Source of the DNA: a virus
Reading direction: 5' to 3' (one strand)
IMG/VR virus record: IMGVR_UViG_3300030430_004105
Coordinates: 19,219 to 83,218 of that record
Length of the DNA stretch: 64,000 bases
The notes below the pieces were generated by a model. That model was not told the origin of the DNA and made no database searches. It saw nothing but the letters and a program-made list of their open reading frames with translations. Each line of letters starts with the position of its first letter. The first letter of the stretch is position 1. The position numbers and the translations under genes are program-made. Of this stretch, positions 21,701 through 49,124 are shown one piece after another.

Positions 21701-24700
21701 ATACATTTTTACATACTCTTCAGGTTCTGATGGTATTACAAGATTGTCAGCATATGTGGCTGCCTCTCGCTTATATTCTTTCTTGATCGGATCAAATATG
21801 GCATCGATCACCACGTCGTTTGCAAAATCCATTGCTGGAATATCACTAGGCGATGGCATAAAAGAATCTGGATCACTGTTAAATGGCAAGTCAATATTGC
21901 CAGTTTTACCTATCGCATCAGACACATTATCTTTAATTTTATCTAATAAGTCTTGCATAATTTGTGCTATATCGTCTTCGCTGATTCCTTCATAATTTTC
22001 AGCCAATTCTTCACCCAGTGTCTTGACATCAGGATATGGAGATAGTCCATAATTCAATCCTAGGTTTTCACAAAGTTCTCCAATTGGAGCCCTACTGTCG
22101 TATATTGACTCTATCTCATCGATCAAATCTAGATCAACTAGTTCTGAGCATGTCTCCGAAACAGATTTTACTAATTCTTTGTCTAATATCAACTTCATTT
22201 TTGGATCTTGAACTAAAGCAAATATTTTTGAATACTCTCTGTCATCCGTATTACCTCTCATAAATTCAAAAACTTCTTTGGGCTTAAGTCCATCTGATAT
22301 TTGCTGCAACATATCTGCTATGTCTTGCTTAGAAATCGACAAGTCTCCCAATGAAGGCAAATCAATAGGATCCAAAACCCCTATTTTAATTCCAAGTTCT
22401 TCTATATCGCTACCTGTTCCGGTAATGTCTTCGAGTCTTCTCCTAGGAAGGAACTCAAAGTCTTTAAAATCAGGTAAAGTAAATGATGAGTTGCTTCTAG
22501 TTTCGCCTCTTCTCTTTAGTTCAGACAGTAAAGAATTTAGTTTGCCTTCAAATTTAGGCAACAAGCCTTCCAAGGCAAGATCAAATCCTGTTCCATTGCT
22601 AGCATCGAACAGTTCGCTTATACTTTCTCCACCAAAATCCGGAACGGACAAATCGAGCCCTCCTCTAAGAGATTCTAAGAGATTGTTCAATAAAATCTTA
22701 AAAGATGATACAAGGCTAGCCTCAATACCACTTTTTATATTGCTCTCGATTTGTTCCATGACACTTCCAAAAATGTCATCAATTCCACCAATTTCAAAAC
22801 TTGAGAAGTCAAAGTTTGGATTAACTGATTTTAAAGATTGCAGAGAAAAGCCTTTGTCAGATCTATTCAATTCTATGTCAATCCCTACTCCTGAATTTCT
22901 TTTAAACAACTTATTTCTAGTTTTTGACTCTTTATCAAACTCTAATCTGAATTTTGGTATTGATATTAGCGCTTGAAAAAAGTCAGTGCTTCCGTTTTCT
23001 TTGTCTCTTTTGAAGAGCCTTTTTATGCCCAAGTCAATAGGAGTTCTGAGTGAAGAAGATCCCAGTTTTTTTAAAGAAGCCTTAATGTCTAACTTCATTG
23101 ATTGAAAGTCTGGGGGATTCCTCAAAAGTTGCCCAATCTCTGGAAATTGTAAGTCTATTTCAGGGCATGGGTTGGTGAAGGTAGGTATTTCACCCTGTAG
23201 TATTTTACATATTATCTCTCTGGCAGATTCTTTCTCGAATACATCTCTGTACTTAAGATTCAAAAGCAAGGATATACAGTCTGTATAGCCAAGTTCATTA
23301 ATTTTATCTAAAACAAAGTCTGCAGCCTGTGTGGGGAGATTGTCCGTTAACATTCCTTGCAGATTTCCTTGATCATCGTAATGTAATATAAGACTAAGCA
23401 AATTCGTTTCAAATGTTTCTAGAATGGTTTCTATCTCTTCGAATCCAAAATCATAGTTAAGGCATATGTCTTCTAAAATAATCTTAAGATTTTCTTCGGT
23501 AAGGCTCTCAAAAATCATGTCAATCAATCTTTCATATTCCATTTTTTTCATAACTGCCCTAGCAATAATCTCATTGATATCTTGTACTCCCAATTCTTCT
23601 GATGCTTTTTCCAGAAGCAAAGAGGCTAAATCATCGACTGATATCTTGTCAAACACTAATTGATATAACGATTCTAGATCATCTATGTTTGCTATAATCT
23701 CAGGCAAGTTAAGCAAAAAGTTGTCTCCAATTTGATTTCTTGCTTTGCTAAGTATTTGAGACGTAACGTCTTTAAACTGTTCAGATTCTACTAAATTTGA
23801 CAAGTCAAGAGCATCTTTAGCGTCTTTAAAAGGATCTGTATATTGATCTTTAAATTGATTAAATGTATCTTCTAAGTCTGATATTGGAATATTGAGTCCT
23901 AAATTTTCTTTTAACTTGTTGAACAAGATTAAATAATCACCACCAAAGTACGTGGATAGAAATTGTTGCCATGGCATTCCTGATTCTTGAGAGTTCAGAA
24001 TATTTTTTGCATTTAACATCAACTTAGATATTTTTGTGTCAGTCACGAGAGATAGTTTGTTTATACCAATGTTCAAAAACTTGCCGGGATTCTCTCCGTC
24101 AAACATCGTTATATAAGCCAACTCTAAAGTCGTCGGATCAAACCCAAATTCCATTTTTGAGTCTGTGTTCAGATTCTCTAAAACATATCCATTCTCTTTT
24201 AATAAATTTTTAACTCCATTGAAAAACTCAAAGTTTTTGTCAGATAGTTTTTTCAGATCAATACCTTCAACAACCCCACTAAATTTGGAAATACTATTGT
24301 GATTTTTCTTGAGAACCTTACTTAAGTTTGAAATTATATTTGAAAAATCTCTAGATTTAAAATTCACAGACAATACATTTTCATAAAAATTTTGAAAATA
24401 TGCAATATTTCTGTCTGGTAGAGCGTCTAGATACTTTGATTTGATGGACAACACTAATTCATGTGAGGCACCTTTTCTTGTTGGAGTCAATATCTCTTCG
24501 AAGTTTATAAACCCAAATGCATCTCTGAGTTTTCCAATATCCGCATCAGCAACATCTTTGCCATAATAGTCTAGTATCTCTTTTACACCTAGTAGTTTGA
24601 AATCTTCTATTCTGTTCATGACTTCTTCTTTGTTTTTCATTCCGGTATCAAACTTTACCAAATAAGAATCATCTTTAAAAAAAGGAATATTAAATCCTGC

Positions 24701-25153
24701 AGACTTAAAATCCGAAAATCGATCAAAGACTACTCTTTTTAATTTCTTGAACGGCTTAATTCTAGACATTGGATAATCTGGATTATTTAAAAACTGAACA
24801 TCACTCTCTTTCAAAAAGTATCTTTCTTGATTACTATCTTCAAACAGCCCAAACTCAAAATTTTCACCAAGATCTAGTTCTATTGCTTTTAGTTGAATTC
24901 CGTCTGTTAATTGCCCAACAGGCAATGCCCCAGCGTCGAAAGAAGAAAAGATCTTTGTAATTGATTGACAAAAGTGTGTCGCTCCTTCAAAATTAGGTGT
25001 AGGTAATTCAATCTTGCCATCTAGTGGAGGGCTTATAAAGTTCAAATCAGACTCTTCCGAGGTTGATCGAAGTCTTTCCATGTATTCCTCTTTTGCATTA
25101 TCAAGACGCTGTTGGACTGATAATTCTTCTCTTGTCCCTTCTACTCCTGCCAT
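18704..25153 (-). CDS. Very large (2,149 aa) acidic, helical protein of the baseplate/tail module
   Basis: Long ORF with a GGAG RBS between spike genes and gp25; no recognisable catalytic motif. Confidence 0.75.
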   Translation of the reverse strand: MAGVEGTREELSVQQRLDNAKEEYMERLRSTSEESDLNFISPPLDGKIELPTPNFEGATHFCQSITKIFSSFDAGALPVGQLTDGIQLKAIELDLGENFEFGLFEDSNQERYFLKESDVQFLNNPDYPMSRIKPFKKLKRVVFDRFSDFKSAGFNIPFFKDDSYLVKFDTGMKNKEEVMNRIEDFKLLGVKEILDYYGKDVADADIGKLRDAFGFINFEEILTPTRKGASHELVLSIKSKYLDALPDRNIAYFQNFYENVLSVNFKSRDFSNIISNLSKVLKKNHNSISKFSGVVEGIDLKKLSDKNFEFFNGVKNLLKENGYVLENLNTDSKMEFGFDPTTLELAYITMFDGENPGKFLNIGINKLSLVTDTKISKLMLNAKNILNSQESGMPWQQFLSTYFGGDYLILFNKLKENLGLNIPISDLEDTFNQFKDQYTDPFKDAKDALDLSNLVESEQFKDVTSQILSKARNQIGDNFLLNLPEIIANIDDLESLYQLVFDKISVDDLASLLLEKASEELGVQDINEIIARAVMKKMEYERLIDMIFESLTEENLKIILEDICLNYDFGFEEIETILETFETNLLSLILHYDDQGNLQGMLTDNLPTQAADFVLDKINELGYTDCISLLLNLKYRDVFEKESAREIICKILQGEIPTFTNPCPEIDLQFPEIGQLLRNPPDFQSMKLDIKASLKKLGSSSLRTPIDLGIKRLFKRDKENGSTDFFQALISIPKFRLEFDKESKTRNKLFKRNSGVGIDIELNRSDKGFSLQSLKSVNPNFDFSSFEIGGIDDIFGSVMEQIESNIKSGIEASLVSSFKILLNNLLESLRGGLDLSVPDFGGESISELFDASNGTGFDLALEGLLPKFEGKLNSLLSELKRRGETRSNSSFTLPDFKDFEFLPRRRLEDITGTGSDIEELGIKIGVLDPIDLPSLGDLSISKQDIADMLQQISDGLKPKEVFEFMRGNTDDREYSKIFALVQDPKMKLILDKELVKSVSETCSELVDLDLIDEIESIYDSRAPIGELCENLGLNYGLSPYPDVKTLGEELAENYEGISEDDIAQIMQDLLDKIKDNVSDAIGKTGNIDLPFNSDPDSFMPSPSDIPAMDFANDVVIDAIFDPIKKEYKREAATYADNLVIPSEPEEYVKMYFEYGDGIVTGFSTEDGLQVEPVRESFKYNLEFETYYKNLETKLYKKSGNEFIEYEGGIEVVENVSAANYGENKYIKSDDAEKGNIYVKKDTIELQPPDLKGFLRTFEINITTDTGDYLYLNNKRGNNGDVELEYTGSSRVLTISEDECLEDSVSEIKNTQNPYTLFKDNIRSNLNDMYRGQTYKYEIRNDLELIFKNINEHVVKTLRSLYRDYSTLNSVQRLYTMVIDSERVDLLDIESIKNVAKEDYNSNFTFKEGEENQMTKSILQGLVYANFKIYTIELLLRGYFALDLFYNPDDMPNQFPQRVKSAFENDFEDYPDYISKINDIIKYDSIPLQYTSMMEKIYTEVVSEMGLIFEDAKRTAFSLFALEGNDFVYFISPDEDLTTQLLNRYLKGKKYVVNTYFLNQETGEELPRRTNLSALPDELEYQPQRFRLSHLTRLDDVEIDDRFEFAELDITEVNASRQILNYYGRIEEDGSPNYYENSDSLPLVAKTSGSVSQTLLFPIYGEFNRNEGFNVSEIKRSQTLSVIPIFDSDSEDTIVDEFISKYTMFSDLNDIIIATISNEVAKQAPQILTAFASTKDAIRMTFQSLKNSEKTFDNDDKALELSISNYPEESATNPDFSNIARKMALQTVPLILKGIAEKFDTNTQIGSTIRTGADLAGIYIPPQIASLIAFGISNFTIPPNPIGLMYLATGYLEPKERKRIKEMVNNRNTKQDVATGDTDSILEQLENVNRIVEEQMRQEELDIYTSVIETFINEYKAIEDLYFEGGYPEDTDGYPQPKDGRNRDDVFPTRDLTSITESAFSPSGSLSERLEQLITRASDLLLQYALLIGFNLLDNEEFSDDAIEKELFVQEDFTKFKLFLQNSLKANFWICEGLNMIALIYYNTNPAVEDVYPPPQEKPVDIDVTYNPRSGGKSATDIYSNYESKRDSEKRNYLEVVDKTATKTRHKLAKWKYSSHEIFDQTETYTYDIWTQLITYVSDKVIPYLKDNGY

Positions 25154-29722: not shown

Positions 29723-29970
29723 AATTTAAAATTCCTGTCAATATTCTTTTTGTACTCCTTTACTTCTTTTTTAGTCTCTTCGATTGTACGATTTACAACA
29801 TCGCCAACTTTTTGCTTAGGAGTATTGATTGTAACTTCCCCTAACAACGCAGGAATACGAACAGCCGAAGGAGCATCACAAACATTACAATTCGTGTGCT
29901 CCTCAGTCATTCCATGCCAGACTTCATATTCGCTTTCACAAGCGTCACAGCGGTATGAATACTTAGGCAT
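29719..29970 (-). CDS. FmdB-family zinc-ribbon protein
   Basis: MPKYSYRCDAC...CNVC. Confidence 0.85.
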   Translation of the reverse strand: MPKYSYRCDACESEYEVWHGMTEEHTNCNVCDAPSAVRIPALLGEVTINTPKQKVGDVVNRTIEETKKEVKEYKKNIDRNFKL

Positions 29971-30197
29971 TATTGTACACTCGTCTCGATTGTCTCACCT
30001 TTTGAAAGACTATCAGAATTAGTCCTTAAGATGGGTGGATTAATCACAACAATGCCCTCAGTTGGGTGTACAGTCAACTTCAAGCCTTTAAGCACAGGCA
30101 CGATATCAGTTTGATTTAGAAGACTATTTTGCAAAGCCATCATAATCGCTCCTAATGCTTGATCAGATAAATGTGTAGTTTGAACTTCAGTGCTCAT
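29970..30197 (-). CDS. Hypothetical protein
   Basis: 75 aa, AAGGAG RBS, directly downstream of a class-I promoter. Confidence 0.75.
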   Translation of the reverse strand: MSTEVQTTHLSDQALGAIMMALQNSLLNQTDIVPVLKGLKLTVHPTEGIVVINPPILRTNSDSLSKGETIETSVQ

Positions 30198-30215
30198 GTT
30201 TTTCTCCTTTTACTT

Positions 30216-30245
30216 ATTATACGATTCAGATATCGATTTTATTCA
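30216..30245 (-). promoter_or_regulatory. Class-I promoter TGAATAAA-N9-TGAATCG-TATAAT
   Basis: One of nine copies of a fixed-spacing bipartite motif. Confidence 0.8.
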
Positions 30246-30687
30246 AATATTTTGTTACATAATCCGTACAAATGTAATCGTACTTCTGTTCGTCAATATC
30301 CGGATATCTTTCTGGGAATAGAAACACAGTGTTTTTGCCACTAGTCTCTTTATTAGGGTATGCCCAGATATGCCCTTTAGATGTTATTGTATAATCATCT
30401 TCTTGGTGCCAAAAACAATGTATTTCAGAAGCCAACATTCGCTCTAGAGCATCTTTGTTTTTAGCATGGCACCAAAGCCCTTCTTGCTTAAGGAAAGTCT
30501 CTTGGATTTGATATTTGGGACTGTCATGTCCTAACAAATATTTTTCATCGATATACCAAACATCTATTTCAACATGAAAACCAGAATCCAGCAATGCTTG
30601 GATCGCTGCTGGGTGGTTTTCTACGGTTGTATCTTCTCCTTCGGTATATGCTCTGTGAGAAATAATTATCACTCTGTTAATCCCCAT
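30226..30687 (-). CDS. GDPD/PLC-like phosphodiesterase (minimal TIM barrel)
   Basis: IISHRA...EN...VEIDVW...LGHD...WCHAKN...ICTDY. Confidence 0.8.
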   Translation of the reverse strand: MGINRVIIISHRAYTEGEDTTVENHPAAIQALLDSGFHVEIDVWYIDEKYLLGHDSPKYQIQETFLKQEGLWCHAKNKDALERMLASEIHCFWHQEDDYTITSKGHIWAYPNKETSGKNTVFLFPERYPDIDEQKYDYICTDYVTKYLNKIDI

Positions 30688-31859
30688 TTTTCAATTGCGA
30701 TGTGATATTCTTCGCCATATTCCTTGTCAATTGATTGCCTCATAGCCATCGCTCCGCTCTTGGATCCATTAGGGTGTCCGTGAATCGCTCCTCCGACATT
30801 AGCCATATAGTCCAATCCAAAACGCTTGTTGATGGCTTTTACAAGCCCAGCATGCATACCACAACTGAGGGCTGGCATTACATTTCTATTATGAAGAACG
30901 TCCAAAGTATTCTTAAGTTCGTCTTCGTTGTCAGACATATACCCTCCCCACATTCCAGCGTGAATAAAATCAACTCCCATCAAGCCAGCAAGATCACAAA
31001 TAACATCCCAAGAGATGTGATAGTCATGAGATTTATTAGTCAAAACTTTGTCTCCGCTTTTCTGAAAGTGTATGAACATAGGAAGATCCAACTCTCTGAT
31101 CGATTTGTAAACTCCCAGTCCACTCCAAAAATTAATGTGTACTGCGTTTGCTCCAAGTTCATATACCCTCTTTACTCTATCGATAACATGATGAGGATCA
31201 CAATTTATACAAACTGCATAGACAACATTCTTATCCTTCAAATATTCCATAATCTTTGGAACCCTTTCTTCGATTGGGCAGCATGCAGGATTAGACATGA
31301 TCTCATCTTCTTTGATGAAATTGATTCCACCTTCTACCATTTCTTTAACCATCTCTAGCAAGACATCACTGTTGACACCAATCTTAGGCTTCACGATCCC
31401 TCCAAATAGTGGTTTATCGTGAGCACCAGTAAAGTCTCTAATACCATCAATTCCATATTTCGGCTTCATGAAATAATTATCTTCTATATGCTGTGGAAAG
31501 TCCACTTCCAAAAGATGACATTTGGTAACAATATCGATATCCATTTGTCCTCCCATAAACTGGCACAGCAAATGTGAAACGCCATCAGACTCAAAGTCAG
31601 TGTTGGCAATAGGAAAGGCAATTGTTACCTCTCCCTCTTGTTTTGTTTTAAGTACTTCTTCGTTACCAATCACAAAACAAGAGTGATTTTCAAACAACTC
31701 ATCTGTTTCCCAATGGTTTCGGACATTAGGGTTTCCAACACTCTGTCCTATGCTCAAACCCCATGCAGCATCTCTTAAAGTTTCATTAGAAGATAAAAAA
31801 TATCTACATAAAATGTATTTCTCTCTATCTATCTCGTCTATTGTTCTAAAAATTTTCAT
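30669..31859 (-). CDS. RuBisCO-like protein (form IV, RLP)
   Basis: PKYGIDGIR, GGIVKPKIG, GINFIKEDE, GVDFIHAG, PALSCGMH, NVGGAIHGHPNG; the loop-6 lysine is absent. Confidence 0.92.
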   Translation of the reverse strand: MKIFRTIDEIDREKYILCRYFLSSNETLRDAAWGLSIGQSVGNPNVRNHWETDELFENHSCFVIGNEEVLKTKQEGEVTIAFPIANTDFESDGVSHLLCQFMGGQMDIDIVTKCHLLEVDFPQHIEDNYFMKPKYGIDGIRDFTGAHDKPLFGGIVKPKIGVNSDVLLEMVKEMVEGGINFIKEDEIMSNPACCPIEERVPKIMEYLKDKNVVYAVCINCDPHHVIDRVKRVYELGANAVHINFWSGLGVYKSIRELDLPMFIHFQKSGDKVLTNKSHDYHISWDVICDLAGLMGVDFIHAGMWGGYMSDNEDELKNTLDVLHNRNVMPALSCGMHAGLVKAINKRFGLDYMANVGGAIHGHPNGSKSGAMAMRQSIDKEYGEEYHIAIEKWGLTE

Positions 31860-32578
31860 AATTCCTCCAATTTTGTTAAAAAATTATTTAGTTCTTCAGG
31901 AGTTCCCATTCCCCTCATTTCATACACTGGATAAGGTTTAACAACCCCTCCTCTTGAGTTTATTAATATATTATACACTGGGCATATATAAAACTCATTG
32001 TTAAATCTAACGTTTCTAGATATCATCTCTTCGGCACAAGAAACATACTCTGATCCTTTAGCCCAATAATACATTCCAACTGTTGCAAAGTTACTTATCA
32101 CTTGCTTTTCGGCAACTTGTGTAATGTTTCCTGTATTATAGTCTACTCTTGAATACGAGTGCTTTGGGCTATCAGATAAGAAAAACGGTATGCAACCATC
32201 CAAACCTTTACAATAGTTCTGGAAGTGTTTAGGATCCCAATCAACCCATTGATCCGCATTTGCAATAAATAATGGCTCGTCATTATCAATATACTCTTTG
32301 GCTAGCAATGTTGTACATGCAGCACCCTCAGTTAAGCCATCTATCTCAACTAAAACAGAATTTTTTACACAATTTCGCAAATACTCTTTCATCTTTGGGT
32401 ATTTTTCCATGTGTTGTTTTTGGACTATGAAAATGTGTTCATTTTCAGGTAATCCAATATTTTCAATGACTCTTTGAATCATTGGTTTTCCGGCTACATC
32501 TATTAAAGGTTTAGGATCTGAGTAACCTGCTTTAAAAAATCTAGATCCTGCTCCTGCTAATGGTATTAATACTTTCAT
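31856..32578 (-). CDS. Sugar/organic-phosphate nucleotidyltransferase (NTP_transferase)
   Basis: LIPLAGAGSRF...PKPLI...TEGAACT...IANADQ...VAEK...NEFYICPVYN...GMGTPEEL. Confidence 0.9.
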   Translation of the reverse strand: MKVLIPLAGAGSRFFKAGYSDPKPLIDVAGKPMIQRVIENIGLPENEHIFIVQKQHMEKYPKMKEYLRNCVKNSVLVEIDGLTEGAACTTLLAKEYIDNDEPLFIANADQWVDWDPKHFQNYCKGLDGCIPFFLSDSPKHSYSRVDYNTGNITQVAEKQVISNFATVGMYYWAKGSEYVSCAEEMISRNVRFNNEFYICPVYNILINSRGGVVKPYPVYEMRGMGTPEELNNFLTKLEEL

Positions 32579-32587
32579 TTTTTCTCC

Positions 32588-33331
32588 TTAAAGTTTGTAT
32601 GCCCATCTTACCAATGGCACCATTCCATCTTCTTTATTTTTGTAATAATTGTCATATTTTTTTTGTATCATAAAGTTACCCATGTCTTCGAATAACCCCA
32701 GTTCTCTTAAATGCCTAGCGGCAATCATATGGTTAGAATCTAGTCCGTATGTTTCTAAAATATCATAAATTCTAGTAAAATTATACATATTATCGGAATT
32801 TGCAACAAACAATAGATCCCCAACTTCATAGTAATGAGACTCTCTATCGCAGCAAGAACCACGACATATTTCTGGATTGTACATATGTATTGGATCTGAG
32901 CCATTGTGATAAAATCTTTTCATGTCTAATCTGGAATCTTCAAAGTCAATCTTTTCTTGCAATGCTAAATCAAATCTAGATAATAATACGATATCGTACT
33001 TTATATTATGTTTTTGTTCATACTTTCTCATAACATCTAAAGATCGTTTGATAGAATACCAATTGCTTTTTATGGCAAATTGTCTAGTACTAAGATTAGA
33101 GCCAAAATCAATTTGATCTTGAAAAATACATCCTTTTGGATTATACATAGAAACCAACTCATCTTTAAATTGTCTATCCCAGCAATGAAAAAACACATCA
33201 ACATCATTATGATCTAACAAGTTCTCTTTCCAATGTTTAAACCCAATCTTTGCCGCATTCATATTCTGCCGTCCTAAAACATACTTTTTATTATTTCCTA
33301 CTTTTCCTCTCATACATAATGCTATTTTCAT
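32588..33331 (-). CDS. Putative glycosyltransferase (KIALC..G / HCW / YD....RFD type)
   Basis: MKIALCMRG...DVFFHCW...YDIVLLSRFDL...DLLF; glycan-locus context. Confidence 0.6.
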   Translation of the reverse strand: MKIALCMRGKVGNNKKYVLGRQNMNAAKIGFKHWKENLLDHNDVDVFFHCWDRQFKDELVSMYNPKGCIFQDQIDFGSNLSTRQFAIKSNWYSIKRSLDVMRKYEQKHNIKYDIVLLSRFDLALQEKIDFEDSRLDMKRFYHNGSDPIHMYNPEICRGSCCDRESHYYEVGDLLFVANSDNMYNFTRIYDILETYGLDSNHMIAARHLRELGLFEDMGNFMIQKKYDNYYKNKEDGMVPLVRWAYKL

Positions 33332-33334
33332 CTC

Positions 33335-34219
33335 TTACTCCCTTATATATAACCTAGATGCATACTTCACTAATTCACTTAATTCATTCCATTTAGAATA
33401 TCGATACGATTTATAATTGAATATCGGAACTGGGTTGTAACTATATTGCAACTGCAGAATCAGTCTTGGTTTAGTCTTAGGCACAGTGCCTCTATGAATT
33501 CCATATGTGTCAGCAAACCAACTAGTTCCCGATTCTCCTGAAATAGTCTTTGCCAGATCACGACTGAAGTATTTGAAAACTTGCTCGTCTGAATATCTCA
33601 CAATCTCAAACATGTCTTTTGGGAGATCGTCTTCTGTATGGCTCCTCTTTACATACACCTGCTCTCCTTCGCCCAGTTCCACATCACTAAGTAACACAAA
33701 AAATTTCACAAACTTATAATCGTCAGCATCTCTATGGAACAACTGCATGTTAATTGGCTCGCTCACATCTTGAGGAAAACTCCACATTGGAAGAACCAAT
33801 GAAAGAGTTGCAGGGCATCCCAAATAACTAGATGCCATTTTTGTCAACCTTTCGTTAGTAATTAATTCGATCATATTAGGGCATAATAGATTATCTTTTA
33901 TCGTGTGTCTCCCAAGTTTAATGTTCTTAGGTATATTTGCCAAATCAAATTTTTGATGGCTACCATAGAAATCATAACAAGGTTTTGTTAAAAAATATTT
34001 GTACATATCCTGTGATTGATCTTGATCAAGAACGTTATCGATTATCATGACACCGTTTTTTCTCAACTCTTCACAGTCCATGTTAAAATCAAATTTGTAC
34101 TCAGTCACAAGTCTGTTACAAGTTTCCATAGATCTGGAATGTCTTGTTGCAAGATCCAGAGTTGCTCTCTGTTCTTCCCACTCAGGAGTAGGAAACTTGA
34201 GTATCCAATTTTCAAACAT
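33335..34219 (-). CDS. 2OG-Fe(II) dioxygenase, PhyH-like
   Basis: FHRDAD...FFVLLSDV...ADTYGIHRG...R (HxD...H triad). Confidence 0.85.
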   Translation of the reverse strand: MFENWILKFPTPEWEEQRATLDLATRHSRSMETCNRLVTEYKFDFNMDCEELRKNGVMIIDNVLDQDQSQDMYKYFLTKPCYDFYGSHQKFDLANIPKNIKLGRHTIKDNLLCPNMIELITNERLTKMASSYLGCPATLSLVLPMWSFPQDVSEPINMQLFHRDADDYKFVKFFVLLSDVELGEGEQVYVKRSHTEDDLPKDMFEIVRYSDEQVFKYFSRDLAKTISGESGTSWFADTYGIHRGTVPKTKPRLILQLQYSYNPVPIFNYKSYRYSKWNELSELVKYASRLYIRE

Positions 34220-34808
34220 GTTTTATTTCCTTTAAGCAATTTTCGTGAAAGAAGTACACAGTGTCTTGTTTGTGCTTCAAAGGTAGTGTTTCTTCTGGGT
34301 GTAAGTTCATGAGTTTACCTCTCATTACTTTTGAAACCATCTCATGACATATAAAAATAATTTTTTGTCCCTCATATTTATCTAAAACAGATGATATTCT
34401 CTCACTTAATAATTCGTAACTCTCTCCCATCGGCACAATGTAGTGCCAATAATTACCTTTTTTGTACCTTCTGTCCAAAAACCCCGGAAAGTCTCTTTCT
34501 ATCTCTTCTTCTGTCTTTCCTTCCCAAAGCCCAAAGCAGTGTTCCTTTAAGTTTTCTTCTGTTATACACTGCATAAAATCAACACCTAGAGATTCACATA
34601 TTATGCTAGCATATTGCTGACATCTCCATTGAGGTGATGTAATAAATTTATATTCTCCTATATCTTTTCCTTCAAACTCCCTTTTGATCAAATCTGCTGT
34701 TCTTTTTGCTTGATCAATTCCTTTAATAGTCAGAGGAGAGTCTTTTTGTCCCTGCTTTCTTTTAGCCAAATTCCACACAGTCTGTCCATGTCTAATAATA
34801 TAAATCAT
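34212..34808 (-). CDS. Histidine phosphatase (phosphoglycerate-mutase family)
   Basis: IIRHGQT, SP..RC, LKE..FG.WEG, GES, ICH. Confidence 0.92.
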   Translation of the reverse strand: MIYIIRHGQTVWNLAKRKQGQKDSPLTIKGIDQAKRTADLIKREFEGKDIGEYKFITSPQWRCQQYASIICESLGVDFMQCITEENLKEHCFGLWEGKTEEEIERDFPGFLDRRYKKGNYWHYIVPMGESYELLSERISSVLDKYEGQKIIFICHEMVSKVMRGKLMNLHPEETLPLKHKQDTVYFFHENCLKEIKHV

Positions 34809-35647
34809 ACGTACTTCATATCCTTGAGAAAATCCAATTCCTCTTTATGAAACTCAGTCAGTCCAGCATTATTCTCTAGAATCAATTTATCTATCGTTTC
34901 ATTCATTTCTCTGTACTTTTCTGGTGTCAGAGCGCAACCTAAATGGTGGATACCCCAATCTAAAGAGAGAGAAAAGTGTCTTTCAATCATTCTGGCGCCT
35001 TGGAGAGTTGCTAAAATAGATGGTGCATATCCAATTTCATGCCCAGAATACCCTATCTTTATATTATCACTTTCAAATTTGTTCCGAAGGTGTGTTATAT
35101 AAGTGATATTTGACTTGCCATCTGGTGTTGGGTAAATCGAAACTGTATGAAGCAAGAATGCTTTAAGTTTAAATCTATTAATTTTATTAACTAACTTTGA
35201 AACAAACTCATCAGACTTTCCACCCAAACTTATTATTAGTGGCTTATCCTCCTTAGCGCACAAAGTCATAACCTTATCAACTAATTCTGTTTTACCAGCA
35301 TCCATACTAGCAACTTTGTAGAAAGGAGGATCAAAAGTTTTAATGAATTCAAGCCCCTCTTCGTCATGTACAGTGCAGAACCATCTTATTCCTTTTGAAT
35401 TGCAGTAATTTGCTAAATATTCAAAATCTTCTTTACTTAACTCCAAAGATCCTCGATATGTCTTAAAATCAAAATTTCTCCATTTTTTACCATCGTCTTT
35501 GTAATATTTTTTAACATTCTTGAATTTAAGTTTAATTAGATTTGCCCCACCGGATACGGCTTCGTCAATCATTTTTTGAGCAATTTTAACCATACCTAGG
35601 TGGTTAATACTCAACTCTGCCACCATAATAGGTTTTTCAATTACCAT
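34805..35647 (-). CDS. neuB: NeuB/SpsE-family nonulosonate synthase, lacking the C-terminal SAF domain
   Basis: AELSINHLG, KVASMD, LLHTVSIYPT, GYSGHEIG, IERHFSL; 280 aa. Confidence 0.85.
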   Translation of the reverse strand: MVIEKPIMVAELSINHLGMVKIAQKMIDEAVSGGANLIKLKFKNVKKYYKDDGKKWRNFDFKTYRGSLELSKEDFEYLANYCNSKGIRWFCTVHDEEGLEFIKTFDPPFYKVASMDAGKTELVDKVMTLCAKEDKPLIISLGGKSDEFVSKLVNKINRFKLKAFLLHTVSIYPTPDGKSNITYITHLRNKFESDNIKIGYSGHEIGYAPSILATLQGARMIERHFSLSLDWGIHHLGCALTPEKYREMNETIDKLILENNAGLTEFHKEELDFLKDMKYV

Positions 35648-36291
35648 CTTCCCATTTCCTCCACTATTTGTTCAAATGTTTTTTCCGTTTCATTAATCAA
35701 GAAACGAACTCTTTTTTCTCTTTCTAATTGTTCCAGTGCAATCGATTTAAATCTATCTTTAAGATCAGATCTTACAATTATAACACCATCTCTACTAGCA
35801 AACGAGTAATCATTTGGGGTTATCTTCACCCCCTCTATTTCAATATCAATCTGATATCTCGTCAAAGCCCAATAGTCTAAAGCATCAATTGGATTTTCGT
35901 CTTTACAAAACACAGGAAAATCTAGTTGATCAATAATATCGATATCTCTAACTACTCCATCTGTCACAAAACCTTTTGCTCCGAGTTTCTTATATATTAA
36001 AGAAGTTATATCACCACTATGTGCTACTTTGTCGTCATTCGCTTGTAAATAGACAATTGGATTATTCGCAAACATACTTGGCTTATACATATCAAGCCTT
36101 ATATTGTCTAGTTTTGAATAATCTACTTTCCAATCTCGTACCACTTCTCCATAAGTAGTGAAACAATCTCCCTGAATAATCGAGGTATAGCCACACTTGG
36201 GCTTTATATTAATATAAAAATCTTTATATTGTTCACCCATCAGCCTTAACGAATCATATACTATACCCATATAAATATCATTTGGTAACAT
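35641..36291 (-). CDS. RraA / HMG-aldolase family protein
   Basis: AHSGDITS...GFVTDGVVRDI...FPVF...I.P.D...ASRDGVII. Confidence 0.85.
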   Translation of the reverse strand: MLPNDIYMGIVYDSLRLMGEQYKDFYINIKPKCGYTSIIQGDCFTTYGEVVRDWKVDYSKLDNIRLDMYKPSMFANNPIVYLQANDDKVAHSGDITSLIYKKLGAKGFVTDGVVRDIDIIDQLDFPVFCKDENPIDALDYWALTRYQIDIEIEGVKITPNDYSFASRDGVIIVRSDLKDRFKSIALEQLEREKRVRFLINETEKTFEQIVEEMGRW

Positions 36292-36946
36292 TCATCAACC
36301 TCTCAATTAATTCTAGATCTTCATTGACATTTATATCTAAAGATTCAATTTTTGAAACCCCTATCATCATTGGGCTCTCTCCAACTCTTGTCTTGTTTTT
36401 AAGTAGAGAATCTACAGTTATGCCGTAAAGTCCGTGTGTCTCCATTTTCAAGATATCTAATTCAAAACTGTTAGGCAGTTCTTTGGTTGAAAAATTATAA
36501 GATTTCCCATCTTTCCAGAAATACTCTTGAACATCTACAGTCGTGAAAAAAGAATCGTGATGAGGAAGTCCGTGGTTAACAAATCTTTCAATGCAAAAAT
36601 CTATAGTTTCAGATCTTAACAATGGTGAAGTGCAAAATGTCTGCAATAGTATGTCACATTCGTCAACGCTGTGAAGTCCGTATATCATCATTTCATTGGC
36701 ACCTATGTCATTTGTTGCGAGACTAGGGTGTCTTTTGATTAATTTCAATCCTCTAGAAAAAAGCGACTTTACACTAGCAATGATATCGTCACTTTCAGTA
36801 TCTAGATAAACGTTGTCTATGTTTTCACATTTGAGTGCTTTTTCACATGCAAGAAAAACCAATGTCTTTCCATTGATTTCGTACAAATTTTTATTTTTTA
36901 TCCTTTTGCTAGTTCCTTTAGCAGGGATAATTAAATTGATTTTCAT
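36278..36946 (-). CDS. CMP-nonulosonate / CMP-Kdo-type cytidylyltransferase (NeuA/KdsB family)
   Basis: IIPAKGTSKRIKNKN, TSPLL, LDINVNEDL. Confidence 0.88.
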   Translation of the reverse strand: MKINLIIPAKGTSKRIKNKNLYEINGKTLVFLACEKALKCENIDNVYLDTESDDIIASVKSLFSRGLKLIKRHPSLATNDIGANEMMIYGLHSVDECDILLQTFCTSPLLRSETIDFCIERFVNHGLPHHDSFFTTVDVQEYFWKDGKSYNFSTKELPNSFELDILKMETHGLYGITVDSLLKNKTRVGESPMMIGVSKIESLDINVNEDLELIERLMNVTK

Positions 36947-37758
36947 ATTTTAAATCTCCGTATTTTTTTAGATAAAAAGCATTTGTCTGATTCATATGCT
37001 TCTATTGAGTTTCCTAGTTTTTCAAAATACTCTGCAAACACTCTAGACAGATTAATCGAATCTAGCATTTCAGAGTTGTATGGCTTTCCACAAGGATTTA
37101 TAGTTTTATTTCTAGATTCTTCATGATAAAAATGCTCAACAAAGCCTTCAATGCTGGGATCTGCATAATCCCACCCTACTGTTTTTACCTTATCAAACCC
37201 TAAATGCAAAGCAAAAAATAACACATTTTCATACATTATACCTGCTCCCCACTCTCTCATTAGTCCTGTTTTTTCAAAAGTATAATTCTCTAAACCATCA
37301 AAATCTTCAAAATATTGTTTTCTAGATAAAGGCATTCTAGTAGGTGTGCCATTACCAGTTGTGTCTCTGTTTATTATTTGTCCAGTAACTCTAGAACAAA
37401 TATCAACTTGTTGATTTTTCCAATACGCTGCTCTAGCAATAACCTCACTATTCCAATCAGATGATCCAATATAAAAACTTTCTTCTTTGTCGGGATAGTA
37501 GACATAGTTATTTGTATTAAAAAAATGAAAATCAATATAGTCTTTAAAAGGAAAATAACTTTGCTTGATAGTCATCAAACAATTGTTTTTCAGTTCTAGT
37601 TTTAACTTTTCTTTATCAATGTCTTTTAGAGATGGGCCGCATCCTAAAATATAACACGTTTGTCCCTTGAATTTGTCTTTAAAGAAAGACAGCCTCTCTT
37701 CATAAGAAGAAAGACTTTTTGCTTCAGCGATTATACTTTTTATATCTTTTTTGTTCAC
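36943..37758 (-). CDS. Maf_flag10 / MptE-like (DUF115) putative nonulosonate transferase
   Basis: KDKFKGQTCYILGCGPSLK...FALHLGF.....GWDY...HFY. Confidence 0.75.
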   Translation of the reverse strand: MNKKDIKSIIAEAKSLSSYEERLSFFKDKFKGQTCYILGCGPSLKDIDKEKLKLELKNNCLMTIKQSYFPFKDYIDFHFFNTNNYVYYPDKEESFYIGSSDWNSEVIARAAYWKNQQVDICSRVTGQIINRDTTGNGTPTRMPLSRKQYFEDFDGLENYTFEKTGLMREWGAGIMYENVLFFALHLGFDKVKTVGWDYADPSIEGFVEHFYHEESRNKTINPCGKPYNSEMLDSINLSRVFAEYFEKLGNSIEAYESDKCFLSKKIRRFKI

Positions 37759-37774
37759 ATAAACCTCTTTATAT

Positions 37775-37804
37775 ATTATACGTTTAAGTTTGTCATTTTA
37801 TTCA
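37775..37804 (-). promoter_or_regulatory. Class-I promoter TGAATAAA-N9-TTAAACG-TATAAT
   Basis: Motif copy overlapping the 3' end of gmd, upstream of the 10-gene cassette. Confidence 0.8.
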
Positions 37805-38780
37805 AATTAATTTGCTCTCTTCTTAGATCTTTCTCGTACATCTCCATTGCAAGTTCTTCAAAATCATATTCAGGCACCCAGCCCAATGTCTTCATCATCT
37901 TGGATGGATCTCCCCATAACTTTGGCACTTCGCAAGGACGATAAAACTTAGGATCAATGACTACGTGATCTTTGATGTCCAGCCCAGCATAGTCAAAAAC
38001 ATACTCTAAAAATTCTTGAACTGAGTTAGTTTTACCAGTTGCTAGCACATAATCATCTGCTACATCGTGCTGAAGCATCATCCACATTCCTTTAACATAA
38101 TCAGCAGCATGTCCCCAGTCTCTTTGGGCAGACAAGTTTCCAAGCCTTAGTTCATCTTGTAAGCCCAACTTGATTCTTGCAGCGGCTTTGGTAATCTTTC
38201 TGGTTACAAAGTTTTCTCCTCGTCTTGGAGATTCATGATTGAAAAGAATACCAGAGCATGCGTAAATCCCATAAGACTTTCTATAAGTGCTTACCATATG
38301 GTGTGCTGCTAATTTAGCACATGCATAAGGCGAGACAGGAGAAAAGTGGGTATCAAGTCCTTGCGGACACTGAGTATTATCACCAAACATCTCGCTCGTA
38401 GATGCCTGATAGAACTTGCAGGATGGCTTCTGGAGCCTTATTGCCTCTAGGGCATACAAACACCCCATCATATTGATCTCAGTCGTACTAACAGGCGTTT
38501 TAAAGGACGTACCGACATGTGATTGAGCAGCCAAATTATAGTATTCATCTGGTTGGTATTCAGATATCAAGCGATAAAGTGAAGAAGAATCTGTTACATC
38601 TGCCTCTTCTAAGATAAAATTACCGTCATCAAGTAAATGAGTTATGTTCTGGCATTTGTTTTCAAAGTCTGAAACTGTTCTTCGATATGTGCCTATAACC
38701 TTGTAGCCCTTATCAATCAGAAGATCTGAAAGATAAGAGCCGTCTTGTCCAGTTACTCCAGTAATTATTGCAGTTTTCAT
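37776..38780 (-). CDS. gmd: GDP-mannose 4,6-dehydratase
   Basis: ITGVTGQDGSYL, YNLAAQSHV, FYQASTSEMFG, SPYACAK, FNHESPRRGENFVTRKIT, RDWGHA. Confidence 0.96.
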   Translation of the reverse strand: MKTAIITGVTGQDGSYLSDLLIDKGYKVIGTYRRTVSDFENKCQNITHLLDDGNFILEEADVTDSSSLYRLISEYQPDEYYNLAAQSHVGTSFKTPVSTTEINMMGCLYALEAIRLQKPSCKFYQASTSEMFGDNTQCPQGLDTHFSPVSPYACAKLAAHHMVSTYRKSYGIYACSGILFNHESPRRGENFVTRKITKAAARIKLGLQDELRLGNLSAQRDWGHAADYVKGMWMMLQHDVADDYVLATGKTNSVQEFLEYVFDYAGLDIKDHVVIDPKFYRPCEVPKLWGDPSKMMKTLGWVPEYDFEELAMEMYEKDLRREQINLNKMTNLNV

Positions 38781-40045
38781 AATAAAAACTCCTCTTCATC
38801 TGGGCTGTCAAATTGTATTCCTAGTTCTTCGTTAAAACGATTAAACCAATACTGCTCACCTTCATAAGAATCTCGAAGTTGCTCAGCCATTTCTGTCCAT
38901 TTGTCAATATTTTCATAAACATCTCTCATTTTACTTTTAGCATCAGCATCATCAATATAAGCCCAACTAGATTCAGCATGAAGAACTCCATCCCAAACTG
39001 CATTTTGAGGAACCTGTCTCAGTTCACACTTAACAGCAGCAAACTTTTTCTTGTATGTTGTGATTTTGCCCCTAGTTTTTCCACCTTTGAGTTTTCCGGG
39101 AGGGTTAATGTCCTCTTTGATGGCTAAAAAGTCTAAGTGTCCACTCCAATCTGTTGCTATAACAGGAAGCCCATTACAAGAAGCCTCATATAAAGGAAGT
39201 CCAAAACCTTCACCATGCGTAAAAGACACAACAGCCTTTACTTTAGGATGATTATATAAACCTTGCATTTGTTCGTCAGATAAATTTCCATGAAGTAGAT
39301 TTATAGAACATTTCCACCCTCCTTCTTTTGCTGTTTTCGAAACTTGCTCAAATTGTTTTTTAATGTTATGGTAGTCCATAACAGAATCGTTTGCCTGATG
39401 AACTTTGAAAAGCAAGCCAACTTCTTCATTCTTGAACTCTTCAAGAAAATTATGTAAAACAGCATCTACATTTTTTCGTGGGCCTAACTGAGCAACACAT
39501 AGAAAGTTGAAATCATGTCTAAGGTTTAGATCCAGTTCTTCTACTTCGATATCTCTCTTAGGAAAACCAACGAACGACATAGGTGTATCGCATTTGTATT
39601 CAGGTATCTTTTGTCCAGTCTTGGTATCAGTTGCTTCATAAGAAGTGTCTCTATAAACTTCCATGCTGTGTTTAGAAATTGTGATAATTTTATCAACCTC
39701 ATTTCCCTTTACCAACCATTCACCAGCAACTCTGTTAGTTTCAATACCTGCTGTATATCCAATATCATGAGGAGATAAACGCTTCCATTCGTTAGGTATT
39801 GTACACTGCACGGTTGCATCATATTGCCCATTGTTCTGCATATACAAAACTGTTTTTTGAAGCAACGCATCAATCAGTTTTCTTTCCTGATCGTCTCTCC
39901 AAATCCATCCTGATCTTCCCCAACTAATATTGTGTACATATAAATCAACTGCGGGGTTTGACATCAATGCCCTAAGAGCAAATCTGCCCATTTCACCATA
40001 TCCGGAACGTGAAAGTACCGGTGCCACTAATAATATTTTTTTCAT
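38777..40045 (-). CDS. GT4-family glycosyltransferase
   Basis: SGYG, RKN, HGEGFGLPLYEA...LPVIATDWSGHLDF. Confidence 0.88.
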   Translation of the reverse strand: MKKILLVAPVLSRSGYGEMGRFALRALMSNPAVDLYVHNISWGRSGWIWRDDQERKLIDALLQKTVLYMQNNGQYDATVQCTIPNEWKRLSPHDIGYTAGIETNRVAGEWLVKGNEVDKIITISKHSMEVYRDTSYEATDTKTGQKIPEYKCDTPMSFVGFPKRDIEVEELDLNLRHDFNFLCVAQLGPRKNVDAVLHNFLEEFKNEEVGLLFKVHQANDSVMDYHNIKKQFEQVSKTAKEGGWKCSINLLHGNLSDEQMQGLYNHPKVKAVVSFTHGEGFGLPLYEASCNGLPVIATDWSGHLDFLAIKEDINPPGKLKGGKTRGKITTYKKKFAAVKCELRQVPQNAVWDGVLHAESSWAYIDDADAKSKMRDVYENIDKWTEMAEQLRDSYEGEQYWFNRFNEELGIQFDSPDEEEFLL

Positions 40046-41331
40046 GCTACCTCCAATAGTCTATAGTTCAAATGCTTTCTGGTTTCCCAAGAACCTTCTT
40101 CTTCATATATTCGCTGCATCAAATCAACCCAAGTTTTTTCGAAAACTTCAAAACTGTAATTTTTTATCACATGTTCTCTACCTGCTCTTCCTAGGGCATC
40201 TCGATACTCTTGATCAGCCATGTACATATCTCTTAGGGCGGACGAAACCTTCTTACCATTTAGTCGATCTTCGTATATGTAAGGCACTTCTTGAGATCCA
40301 ATAATCGCCTTAGAATCAGGCTCCAGTCCAATCCCGAACCAAGTCTCTCCGTCTGTAACCTGTTCTTGTAGTCCGCCTGTCATATTCACAATTATTGGTG
40401 TCCCACAAGAAAGAGATTCAAGCGTTGCCAGTCCAAATCCTTCAGCATCTGATATGTTGATCGTACAGTCTGCTAGATTATAAAACATTGCTAGATTTTC
40501 CATTTGAACTTTGTTAGTAGAAAACAAAATCTGTCCATCAATTAATCCTAAGTTTTGAACAATAGCATTGAGATCTTGCCCATATCCATCTTTGGGATCT
40601 GTGTGCATGATTAATGATGCTTTATCATGTCCAACTTGATCTAGAAAGTCTTTAAACCAATAAATCAAAGAACCGCTCTGTTTTCTTCTAGCATTTCGAT
40701 TGTTCCAAAAAAACAAAAACTTTCCTTTTGAATCGTACTGTTCATCAAACTGTGCTCTAAACTCTTCTATCTGTTCTTTTGGCAAAGGCTTAAAAAAGTT
40801 AGAATCAACAGCATGCGGCACATACTGCTCTTTCACATCAGGTGCAACATTTTGCACAATATCACTTGTAACTTTTGATATAGTTGCAATAAAATCGTTA
40901 GATTCGTAAAACCTCTGGTTATATTTTGGTAGTGGGTAGTTGTCCCACACATGATAATATACCATGGGGATTAAAGAACGAATCTCTGCCTCTATTTCCC
41001 AAAGCCAGCCATAAAAACGAGGATCAGTCATAAAATACAAAATATCAGGACGTTCATTTCTGATAATAGATCTTACGATATCCTGTGTGCCATAGCCATC
41101 GACAGGGAAGATTTTCCATCTTTCACCCCATTGTTCCGTGATCTGTGGCTTATGATCCGGATGCTTGATTGCCCCACCAAGACTGACTACATCAAATTTA
41201 TCAGACTTAAGCAGGGCTTCTATAATATATTTAGTTTGAGTTCCGACACCCGATGGCGATAGTGGGTGATCAGATATAGTCAAAACTTTAATTCTTTTTT
41301 CCGACATTTCTTCTCCTTTTGTTACGGACAA
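40042..41331 (-). CDS. GT4-family glycosyltransferase
   Basis: VPHAVD, NRNARRK, AEGFGLATLESLSCGTPII. Confidence 0.9.
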   Translation of the reverse strand: MSVTKGEEMSEKRIKVLTISDHPLSPSGVGTQTKYIIEALLKSDKFDVVSLGGAIKHPDHKPQITEQWGERWKIFPVDGYGTQDIVRSIIRNERPDILYFMTDPRFYGWLWEIEAEIRSLIPMVYYHVWDNYPLPKYNQRFYESNDFIATISKVTSDIVQNVAPDVKEQYVPHAVDSNFFKPLPKEQIEEFRAQFDEQYDSKGKFLFFWNNRNARRKQSGSLIYWFKDFLDQVGHDKASLIMHTDPKDGYGQDLNAIVQNLGLIDGQILFSTNKVQMENLAMFYNLADCTINISDAEGFGLATLESLSCGTPIIVNMTGGLQEQVTDGETWFGIGLEPDSKAIIGSQEVPYIYEDRLNGKKVSSALRDMYMADQEYRDALGRAGREHVIKNYSFEVFEKTWVDLMQRIYEEEGSWETRKHLNYRLLEVA

Positions 41332-49112: not shown

Positions 49113-49124
49113 TTTTTACCTCAG

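Follow-up and report, generated by a model that had tools for sequence, protein, structure and literature searches.

A stretch of 64,000 nucleotides from a virus (positions 19,219 to 83,218 of IMG/VR record IMGVR_UViG_3300030430_004105; hereafter the window) carries a block of ten genes, g01–g10, that probably consists of two autonomous cassettes placed side by side, accompanied by the accessory genes g06 and g07, and that would thus supply two separate activated sugars. Module A (g01–g05) encodes a short MptE-like protein, a cytidylyltransferase (CMPt) of the type that activates ulosonates with cytidine monophosphate (CMP), an RraA-type aldolase, a short NeuB-family synthase, and a histidine phosphatase (HisP). 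Module B (g08–g10) encodes a sugar-1-phosphate-type nucleotidyltransferase (NTPt), a RuBisCO-like protein (RLP), and a miniature GDPD-like phosphodiesterase (mini-GDPD). A preliminary description of this DNA had assigned all ten genes to one pathway leading to one branched sugar. This claim fails, because g01–g05 are found without g06–g10 in the viral loci L048, L179, and L180–183. What is left is a mosaic of two recurrent sugar-activation cassettes, with two proposed enzyme recruitments that are open to testing. Under the two-cassette reading the modules are separate biochemical units of four and three enzymes, not ten enzymes acting together.

Separate occurrence of the two modules

In the viral locus L048, g01–g05 follow each other in the order of the window (identities of 42, 81, 84, 91, and 65%). 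Directly after them come the genes (g0c/sigma) that follow g10 in the window, and g06–g10 are absent. A profile search recovered CMPt–RraA–NeuB–HisP and an MptE-like gene without RLP on the viral contigs L179 and L180–183, the latter being four contigs with identical match tables. When whole records were searched, RLP was found in none of five module A contigs, which are 32–49% complete.

Module A also occurs in cells. A family search with RraA yielded 121 proteins (40–93% identity, mostly metagenomic), and in the GTDB representative genomes four loci with true orthologs were found among 152 RraA relatives. They belong to a Bdellovibrionales metagenome-assembled genome (MAG), Vibrio amylolyticus ZSDE26, a Pelagibacter single-cell genome, and a Planctomycetota MAG. 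Order and strand of CMPt–RraA–NeuB–HisP are kept in all four of these bacterial loci, with identities to the window of 48–63% for CMPt, 42–55% for RraA, 45–61% for NeuB, and 30–48% for HisP. The block of V. amylolyticus adjoins a canonical NeuB+SAF gene, an ATP-grasp enzyme, a metallophosphoesterase, an SDR, and a TagF-like transferase, and the locus is of the surface-glycan or flagellin-glycosylation type. In a search of 1.84 billion representative proteins, the RraA profile matched 33 at E ≤ 1e-30. The 463-aa protein P0193 is a natural CTP_transf_3::RraA fusion and thereby ties the aldolase to the step adjoining CMP activation. In P0215 (429 aa), RraA is joined to a weak GT29 sialyltransferase-like segment, whose score of 21.3 bits lies under the cut-off.

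For module B, 45 viral loci were fetched through their RLP (53–88% identity), and the window proteins were sought within ~10 kb of it. RLP and NTPt matches are present in all 45 loci and GDPD matches in 39. The accessory proteins g07 (by tblastn) and g06 matched in nine loci and one locus, respectively. Module A is nearly missing from this set: neither RraA nor HisP had a match beside g08–g10 in any of the 45 loci, and NeuB and MptE matched in two each and CMPt in one. These last matches are confined to L007 and L008 and share only 28–34% identity with the window proteins; they belong to other nonulosonate gene sets. A whole-record search of four complete RLP phage genomes found an RraA gene in none of them, and in positive controls the RraA and RLP profiles each recovered their own gene in the record of the window.

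With the RLP profile, 49 cellular loci were obtained, which include a complete Pelagibacter chromosome, many SAR11 single-cell genomes, Patescibacteria with Beckwithbacteria (L136), the DPANN lineages Woese-, Nano-, Pace-, and Micrarchaeota, Verrucomicrobia, Planctomycetes, Nonomuraea, three Legionella species, and a Francisellaceae MAG. One SAR11 cluster adjoins the housekeeping gene lepA and is therefore chromosomal. Gene neighborhoods were compared for the 88 loci with a called RLP open reading frame (ORF), a set of 43 viral (including the window) and 45 cellular loci that was not de-replicated. In 84 of the 88 loci (42 of the 45 cellular ones), a nucleotidyltransferase gene lies no more than four genes from the RLP, and within the same distance a mini-GDPD is found in 54 (18 cellular), a free-standing cupin of 106 aa in 33 (11 cellular), and a GDP-mannose 4,6-dehydratase (GMD) in 20 (seven cellular). 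The cupin has the motif HxHx4Ex6G. Among the 45 viral loci it is present in 41, fused to the C-terminus of NTPt in 16 and as a separate ORF in 25, and it is absent from the window, its three closest relatives (L003–L005), and L013. Some NTPt relatives carry an N-terminal HAD_2 domain, as in the HAD_2::NTPt fusion of L038. Neighbors in cellular clusters include GT2 and GT17 transferases, a Wzz-like gene, and a CMP-transferase. No NCBIfam match was obtained for the cupin or for several of the recurrent neighbor families, save the LicD-like and AhpD-like genes of Legionella. In a midpoint-rooted FastTree of 81 distinct RLPs, the window protein falls within a viral clade with L003–L009, and viral sequences are interleaved with those of SAR11, Patescibacteria, and Planctomycetes; a SAR11-2/DPANN and a Legionellales/Nonomuraea clade lie outside.

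Three further arrangements were seen at cellular RLP loci. Firstly, two NTP-transferase paralogs flank the RLP in many SAR11 and DPANN loci (L139, L143–L150, L152–L160), which hints at two activated products or at a two-step activation. Secondly, a 505-aa ORF of a Micrarchaeota MAG (L146:9998–11515, minus strand) matches both the NTPt profile and the mini-GDPD profile (residues 290–376, 33.8 bits) and may be an NTPt::GDPD fusion, the two domain ranges overlapping. Thirdly, in Legionella/Tatlockia (L170, L173, L174, L168) a LicD-like gene (NF045866, E 1e-23) and an AhpD-domain gene lie ~1–2.5 kb upstream of the RLP, and neither mini-GDPD nor cupin was detected in these RLP–NTPt loci.

Among all loci examined, modules A and B stand together in one phage only in the window and in the near-identical DNA of three sequencing runs. 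The preliminary description had considered such a gene set least expected in a virus, but both modules are present in cellular genomes too, and phage RLPs had been reported in 2018. Its statement that no described pathway has this gene set agrees with our literature search, in which no paper was found to connect the RLPs of phages with a nucleotidyltransferase, or to connect RraA with either NeuB or nonulosonic acids.

Predicted functions of the gene products

The protein families named for the ten genes in the preliminary description all hold. For six of them direct Pfam matches were obtained, and g01, g06, g07, and g10 were assigned only through relatives, motifs, or predicted folds (Table 1).

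Table 1. Positions in the window of the ten genes, the promoter-like motif, and related genes.
Feature	Position	Strand	Remarks
g01	36943–37758	-	Module A; short MptE-like/DUF115 protein, 271 aa; candidate transferase of CMP-activated acid sugar
g02	36278–36946	-	Module A; CMP-ulosonate-type cytidylyltransferase (CMPt), 222 aa; PF02348 CTP_transf_3, 62.4 bits (cut-off 22.6)
g03	35641–36291	-	Module A; RraA/HMG-CHA-aldolase family protein, 216 aa; PF03737, 62 bits
g04	34805–35647	-	Module A; short NeuB-family synthase, condensing phosphoenolpyruvate (PEP), 280 aa; PF03102, 147.9 bits (cut-off 22.1)
g05	34212–34808	-	Module A; histidine phosphatase branch 1 (HisP), 198 aa; PF00300 His_Phos_1, 121.9 bits
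g06	33335–34219	-	Accessory; distant PhyH-type iron/2-oxoglutarate (Fe/2OG) dioxygenase candidate, 294 aa
g07	32588–33331	-	Accessory; GT-A-fold glycosyltransferase-like protein, 247 aa
g08	31856–32578	-	Module B; sugar-1-phosphate-type nucleotidyltransferase (NTPt), 240 aa; 4-nt overlap with RLP gene
g09	30669–31859	-	Module B; RuBisCO-like protein (RLP), 396 aa; phage/"form IV-like" clade
g10	30226–30687	-	Module B; miniature GDPD-like phosphodiesterase, 153 aa; ~60% of a normal GDPD
Promoter-like motif	37774–37805	-	Directly upstream of g01, overlapping 3' end of GMD gene
Promoter-like motif	30215–30246	-	Just past g10, ahead of next gene (29970–30197)
Promoter-like motif, other copies	49208–49239, 50503–50534, 51649–51680, 52178–52209	-	
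Promoter-like motif, other copy	53221–53252	+	
GDP-mannose 4,6-dehydratase (GMD)	37776–38780	-	Island, upstream of g01
GT4 glycosyltransferases (two)	38777–40045, 40042–41331	-	Island, upstream of g01 (island part 37776–41331)
Phosphomannomutase (PMM)	49210–50013	-	Eukaryote-type; PF03332, E 3.9e-43

Judged from its sequences, the most likely product of module A, which the module would also use, is a CMP-activated 3-deoxy-2-ulosonic acid. In the first step, g04 would condense PEP with a phosphorylated aldose. It matches NeuB and PseI structures of the PDB at E 2e-23 and is a member of the NeuB family, but it does not qualify as an N-acetylneuraminate or pseudaminate synthase proper, scoring far under the equivalog cut-offs (NeuB_NnaB, 131.9 vs. 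399.65 bits; PseI, 123.6 vs. 340.25 bits). No SAF domain match was obtained for g04, and the protein stops at 280 aa. The phosphate would then be taken off by the histidine phosphatase g05, which has the catalytic RHG motif in the form IIRHGQT.

The third step is assigned to the RraA-type class II pyruvate aldolase g03. Chemically, 3-deoxy-2-ulosonic acids fall into the class of 4-hydroxy-2-oxo acids, on which aldolases of this family generically act, for which reason g03 may be expected to act on the NeuB product, in its open-chain form and just ahead of activation. As a best guess, it would epimerize C4 or edit the chain by retro-aldol/aldol chemistry. The motifs GDITS and TDGxxRD are invariant in the family alignment of 16 sequences, and g03 matches the 4-carboxy-4-hydroxy-2-oxoadipate (CHA) aldolase 3noj of the PDB at E 1e-4. 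The CMP-sugar would be formed by g02, whose family is clear; against equivalog models it reaches 50.5 bits for PseF (cut-off 205.7), and with the KdsB models it likewise stays far under the cut-offs. Finally, g01 might transfer the activated sugar. It scores 23.3 bits against PF01973 (MptE-like), under the cut-off of 34.6, and 14 of 26 homologs have PF01973 on record. The MptE-like/DUF115 family includes the Maf flagellin glycosyltransferases, large multidomain proteins of ~600 aa that attach nonulosonate to Ser/Thr of flagellin, whereas g01 has only 271 aa.

The preliminary description had further proposed a route like that of 2-keto-3-deoxynononic acid (KDN). The conserved block of synthase, phosphatase, and CMPt is in keeping with this, as a route resembling those of KDN or 3-deoxy-D-manno-octulosonic acid (Kdo) via a phosphorylated intermediate. 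The PMM, whose presence at 49210 is confirmed, fits the supply of GDP-mannose for the GMD adjacent to the cassette at least as well as a KDN route. It was also correct that genes for NeuC or for precursors of pseudaminic acid (Pse) and legionaminic acid (Leg) are missing: neither the PF02350 epimerase nor the PF01041 DegT aminotransferase was found in the 83-kb contig, which is 45% complete.

Hydroxylation of the module A sugar may be the task of the PhyH-like g06 where this gene is present. It had no Pfam match even at E 5, and its HxD…H pattern (FHRDADD, GIHRG) was seen by eye only; three of 45 g06 homologs carry PhyH (PF05721). Five homologs lie on contigs equal in size to contigs of RraA homologs, and g06 is absent from L048; this points to the dioxygenase as an optional companion of module A.

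Module B most likely makes a second sugar, activated with a nucleoside diphosphate (NDP), as far as its predicted enzymes tell. The RLP g09 matches PF00016 RuBisCO_large with 116.6 bits (cut-off 30.1), and its best solved relative is 2oej, a 2,3-diketo-5-methylthiopentyl-1-phosphate (DK-MTP-1-P) enolase (E 1e-36 over residues 16–379). The family alignment of 31 sequences (mean column identity 65%) keeps KPK, KEDE, the invariant His of FIHAG, S-C-G, and GG..H.HP, and K157, K159, K183, D185, and E186 are invariant. We assign these motifs to the metal/carbamate site and to glycine-rich loops for binding the phosphate next to a carbonyl. The positions that we equate by eye with Glu60, Asn123, and the loop-6 Lys334 of the spinach enzyme are taken by Q39, Q105, and Y307, which do not vary in the family. 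When aligned with 2oej, the invariant Q105 of the phage family stands at a Lys that is presumably the catalytic base of the enolase, at the Asn123-equivalent position. None of the curated equivalog cut-offs is reached by g09 (DK-MTP-1-P enolase, 167.6 vs. 409 and 137.1 vs. 513.6 bits; rubisco_III, 165.6 vs. 497 bits). Because the metal and phosphate sites are kept, the carboxylation residues and the Lys are replaced, and the cut-offs are missed, g09 is a member of the RuBisCO large-subunit superfamily that is neither a carboxylase nor a DK-MTP-1-P enolase and that is probably able to enolize a ketose 1-phosphate.

In the simplest scheme, the RLP would probably enolize and then isomerize or epimerize a ketose 1-phosphate, isomerase or mutase steps would follow where such enzymes are present, and NTPt would activate the product. 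The NTPt g08 matches PF00483 NTP_transferase with 42 bits (cut-off 21.2), and its PDB matches are 4evw (E 9e-18) and GDP-mannose pyrophosphorylases (E 1e-7). The mini-GDPD could act on a phosphodiester; it might, for instance, reopen a cyclic or diester compound that arises as a by-product or precursor. This role is the weakest part of the scheme. In the family alignment of g10 the motifs HRG..EN..ExD..GHD are present and invariant; no Pfam match was obtained. Its profile matches the Pyrococcus GDPD 7e0v among PDB sequences at E 0.0014, over the N-terminal 50 residues only. An AlphaFold2 (AF2) model with pLDDT 93 retrieved GDPDs as top Foldseek matches (E 2.3e-3 to 1e-2, none ≤1e-3). As g10 has only 153 aa, it is not a full TIM barrel (~230–250 aa).

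The NDP-sugar might then be used by GT-A or GT4 transferases such as g07. For g07 and its relatives nothing useful was found in Pfam at E values up to 5, and only A4, G9, R119, and D121 are invariant in the family alignment. The best Foldseek matches of its AF2 model (pLDDT 75.5) are GT-A transferases of family GT6 (E 5e-5, probability 1.00, TMq 0.46–0.50). Besides the viral loci given above, the g07 profile matches 11 distinct cellular ORFs.

An alternative that we consider unlikely, yet worth keeping in mind, is that module B makes a CDP- or NDP-activated polyol phosphate or ketose phosphate for a phosphodiester-linked decoration, in the style of LicC/LicD or TarI/TarJ, with the mini-GDPD trimming or recycling the phosphodiester. 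The LicD-family gene beside the RLP–NTPt pair in the four Legionella/Tatlockia loci and the phosphodiesterase within the module in 54 of 88 loci would fit this, as would the substrates of RLPs, which are ketose 1-phosphates and thus bear a phosphate that is not anomeric. However, a LicD-like profile built from the Legionella genes matched nothing else in 94 loci at E ≤ 0.01, so the phosphotransfer model was not generalized. Moreover, the recurrent partner g07 has a predicted GT-A glycosyltransferase fold, NTPt is nearest to sugar-1-phosphate enzymes, and the cupin and HAD fusions look like the layout of phosphomannose isomerase (PMI), PMM, and GDP-mannose pyrophosphorylase (GMP) in GDP-mannose synthesis, where fusions of this kind are known (AlgA/ManC type).

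It is very unlikely that module B serves the salvage of methylthioadenosine or 5'-deoxyadenosine. Models for this would be the methionine salvage enzymes MtnW, MtnD, and MtnX, for which RLP, cupin, and HAD would stand in, or the RLP–cupin shunt of Rhodospirillum. The nearest solved or curated relatives of the RLP are indeed DK-MTP-1-P enolases (2oej, E 1e-36; NF007095, E 3e-49), relatives have a cupin and a HAD domain, and the family is common in SAR11. Yet the scores lie far under the equivalog cut-offs (168 vs. 409 and 137 vs. 514), Gln replaces the aligned Lys of 2oej, and the constant partner is a nucleotidyltransferase. Furthermore, relatives of MtnA, MtnB, and MtnK were not seen among the recurrent neighbor families, and the neighbors are glycosyltransferases, GMD, and methyltransferases.

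With sugar activation retained as the preferred function of both modules, a joint reading can be offered, tentatively and at somewhat less than an even chance: each module would have recruited a "catabolic" enzyme of C–C bond or enolization chemistry, the RLP as an isomerase or epimerase feeding NTPt, and RraA as the enzyme that remodels the NeuB-made ulosonic acid before CMP activation. DNA glycosylation was considered as a sink for the sugars, and nothing in the window bears on it.

Gene layout and genomic setting

The ten co-oriented, abutting or overlapping genes lie exactly where the preliminary description had placed them. Seven of the junctions overlap by 4–19 nt, and the two gaps measure 3 and 9 nt. 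That description had also put the genes behind one promoter. A promoter-like motif, TTGAATAAAAT-N12-CGTATAATA, occurs at seven sites in the window, where shuffled sequence would give 0.03 (Table 1); one lies just before g01 and one just after g10, and within the ten-gene stretch no copy was found at ≤3 mismatches. The single promoter is thus supported at the level of the motif only. A simple sigma-70 scan gave a modest excess of promoter-like sites (58 vs. 43.9 expected, sd 6.0), which is not interpretable with so simple a scan, and a terminator scan found six terminator-like sites where 4.9 were expected. Two of the motif copies reach into the 3' ends of unrelated genes, GMD and g10, and could be recombination points for cassette swapping. 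Direct repeats of 40 nt that bracket the cassette were considered as marks of a mobile element and rejected because they are two ordinary copies of the phage-wide, seven-site motif; recombination may still occur at the motifs.

It is hardly credible that all ten genes form one pathway in which RraA, RLP, and the dioxygenase jointly build a single branched keto-acid sugar that is then activated and transferred: the tight packing, the lone motif at the head, and the recovery of the identical arrangement in an independent run would suit it, but the halves are joined at no other locus examined (45 viral RLP, 6 viral RraA, and 4 bacterial RraA loci), the four complete RLP phages lack RraA, and two nucleotide-activating enzymes, one of CMP type and one of NDP type, suggest two donors. 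The preliminary description had itself named random gene combinations across relatives as evidence to the contrary; the modules do combine in this way, although within each module the combination is not random, and by that measure the single pathway is largely refuted.

Some observations weigh against the two-cassette reading and the chemistry proposed for it. The role given to the RraA enzyme derives from family chemistry only. Since a GDPD is near only 18 of 45 cellular RLPs, it may stand outside the core chemistry, and the LicD-like neighbor in Legionella suggests the logic of a CDP-alcohol or phosphotransfer system and not of a glycosyl donor. The cupin is missing in the window and L003–L005 despite its presence in most viral loci, so the isomerase step would have to be dispensable or host-supplied. 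Lastly, the location of g06 and g07 between the modules and the one promoter-like site could leave room for cross-talk in this phage; one glycan might, for instance, contain both sugars linked to each other.

The ten-gene stretch is best read as part of a hypervariable glycan island in a marine myovirus of ~190 kb. Its phage origin, as already stated in the preliminary description, is borne out by the IMG/VR virus record of 83 kb (CheckV completeness 45%) and by the baseplate wedge, late-sigma-like, and PhoH genes of the window. The wedge protein is nearest to that of Microcystis phage Mel-JY01 (34%), followed by Flavobacterium "immuto" phages (29%), and complete relatives of the phage have 190–216 kb. 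A PD-(D/E)XK nuclease gene bounds the island on one side and the late-sigma/baseplate block on the other. PMM and a small cytidylyltransferase-like gene are located 11–18 kb from the cassette (PMM 11 kb). The region 48151–50013 (minus strand), outside the cassette, holds PMM, a tRNA-Arg(TCT) at 49125–49200, a 173-aa ORF without assignment, and the small CTP_transf_like protein. Two giant ORFs adjoin the baseplate-wedge gene, one at 3–15014 (minus strand; >5004 aa, running off the window) and one at 18704–25153 (minus strand; 2149 aa); both may be fibre or baseplate proteins and could serve as acceptors of the glycans. Also encoded are a PIN-domain::PhoH fusion (43460–44884, minus strand) and a UvdE UV-damage endonuclease (50657–51670, minus strand).

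In two sequencing runs that are possibly the source runs, the stretch is covered by a single contig, entirely in X1 and at 30163–38200 in X2. In the marine run X3, which belongs to a separate study, contigs cover 30 of 30 bins, and each of the eight listed pieces matches the window without a difference; one of them bridges the g06/g05 junction (34173–35278). Because identical pieces are present in a run from another study, the ten-gene arrangement is not an assembly artifact. One X3 contig was reported to connect 31800 (start of the RLP gene) with 35415 (within NeuB), with three other letters between; it could represent a variant without g05–g08 or an assembly artifact. A blastn search of the cassette against GenBank phages gave only 80-nt matches, in NTP-transferase/HAD genes of cyanophages, and a tblastn search with the RLP against 50,697 phage records gave zero matches, so no deposited phage of that collection has the RLP. 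In the PHROGs database g05, g07, g08, and g10 match only unnamed families.

Significance and relation to known systems

If correct, the reading proposed for module B would provide the first biosynthetic, glycan-building role within the RuBisCO superfamily, common to phages, SAR11, bacteria of the candidate phyla radiation, DPANN archaea, and Legionella. The constant NTPt partner of the RLP clade and its setting in glycan loci of abundant ocean bacteria and phages make this function directly testable. The acid sugar of module A would differ from N-acetylneuraminic acid, KDN, Kdo, Pse, and Leg, and the compact, portable four-gene cassette of RraA, NeuB, phosphatase, and CMPt is probably dedicated to a new sialic-acid-like sugar. 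It could bear on the recognition between phages and their SAR11-like or other marine hosts, and on glycoengineering. With both modules at its disposal, a phage could place two undescribed sugars on its giant fibre proteins or on the surface of its host.

Systems with similar logic are known for module A. In KDN- and Kdo-type pathways, such as those of Bacteroides BT1713–1715 and of KdsA/KdsC/KdsB, a PEP-dependent synthase, a phosphatase, and a CMP-activating enzyme likewise form a block. In contrast to these, the phosphatase of module A belongs to the histidine-phosphatase superfamily instead of HAD, its NeuB lacks SAF, and an RraA-type aldolase, sometimes fused to CMPt, is an obligatory fourth member. 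The nearest viral analog, as far as the accessible part of the source describes it, is the Kdo-type CMP-ulosonic acid route of CroV (crov265–267) and Fadolivirus (PMC9614988). The aldolase–oxaloacetate decarboxylase for 4-hydroxy-4-methyl-2-oxoglutarate (HMG) and CHA (3noj) shares with g03 the RraA-like Pfam match and the DGxxRD-type motif, but g03 reaches only 39 bits with the LigK equivalog (cut-off 304) and stands in a biosynthetic glycan context, not in one of aromatic catabolism.

On the side of module B, GDP-mannose synthesis by PMI–GMP enzymes (AlgA/ManC type) is comparable in that relatives of g08 end in a cupin and in some cases begin with a HAD domain, g08 itself matches GDP-mannose pyrophosphorylases, and GMD is a recurrent RLP neighbor. 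However, the minimal cupin of 106 aa had no PMI Pfam match at the thresholds used, g08 of the window is cupin-free, and the RLP has no counterpart in that pathway. With the DK-MTP-1-P enolases (MtnW/YkrW, 2oej), g09 shares KxK, KxDE, and the glycine-rich phosphate loops; it differs in the Gln that replaces their Lys and in the lack of a methionine-salvage context.

New branches of RuBisCO homologs were already noted in the 2007 GOS paper, and the phage RLP clade itself has been in print since 2018/2019, without a function. According to the accessible part of their preprint, Jaffe, Castelle, Dupont, and Banfield (2018; bioRxiv 10.1101/386292) found ~90 divergent RLPs on scaffolds of putative phages; Myoviridae are among these phages, and one is a curated genome of ~200 kb. 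These proteins miss key carboxylase residues and have relatives in Beckwithbacteria; their function was left open there, and lateral transfer and carbon metabolism were discussed. As far as the same part of the preprint permits the comparison, these "form IV-like" phage and Beckwithbacteria RLPs are apparently the same kind of protein as g09, and a Beckwithbacteria locus (L136) was recovered here as well. The constant NTPt, GDPD, and cupin partners and the glycan-locus setting are not mentioned in that part of the preprint.

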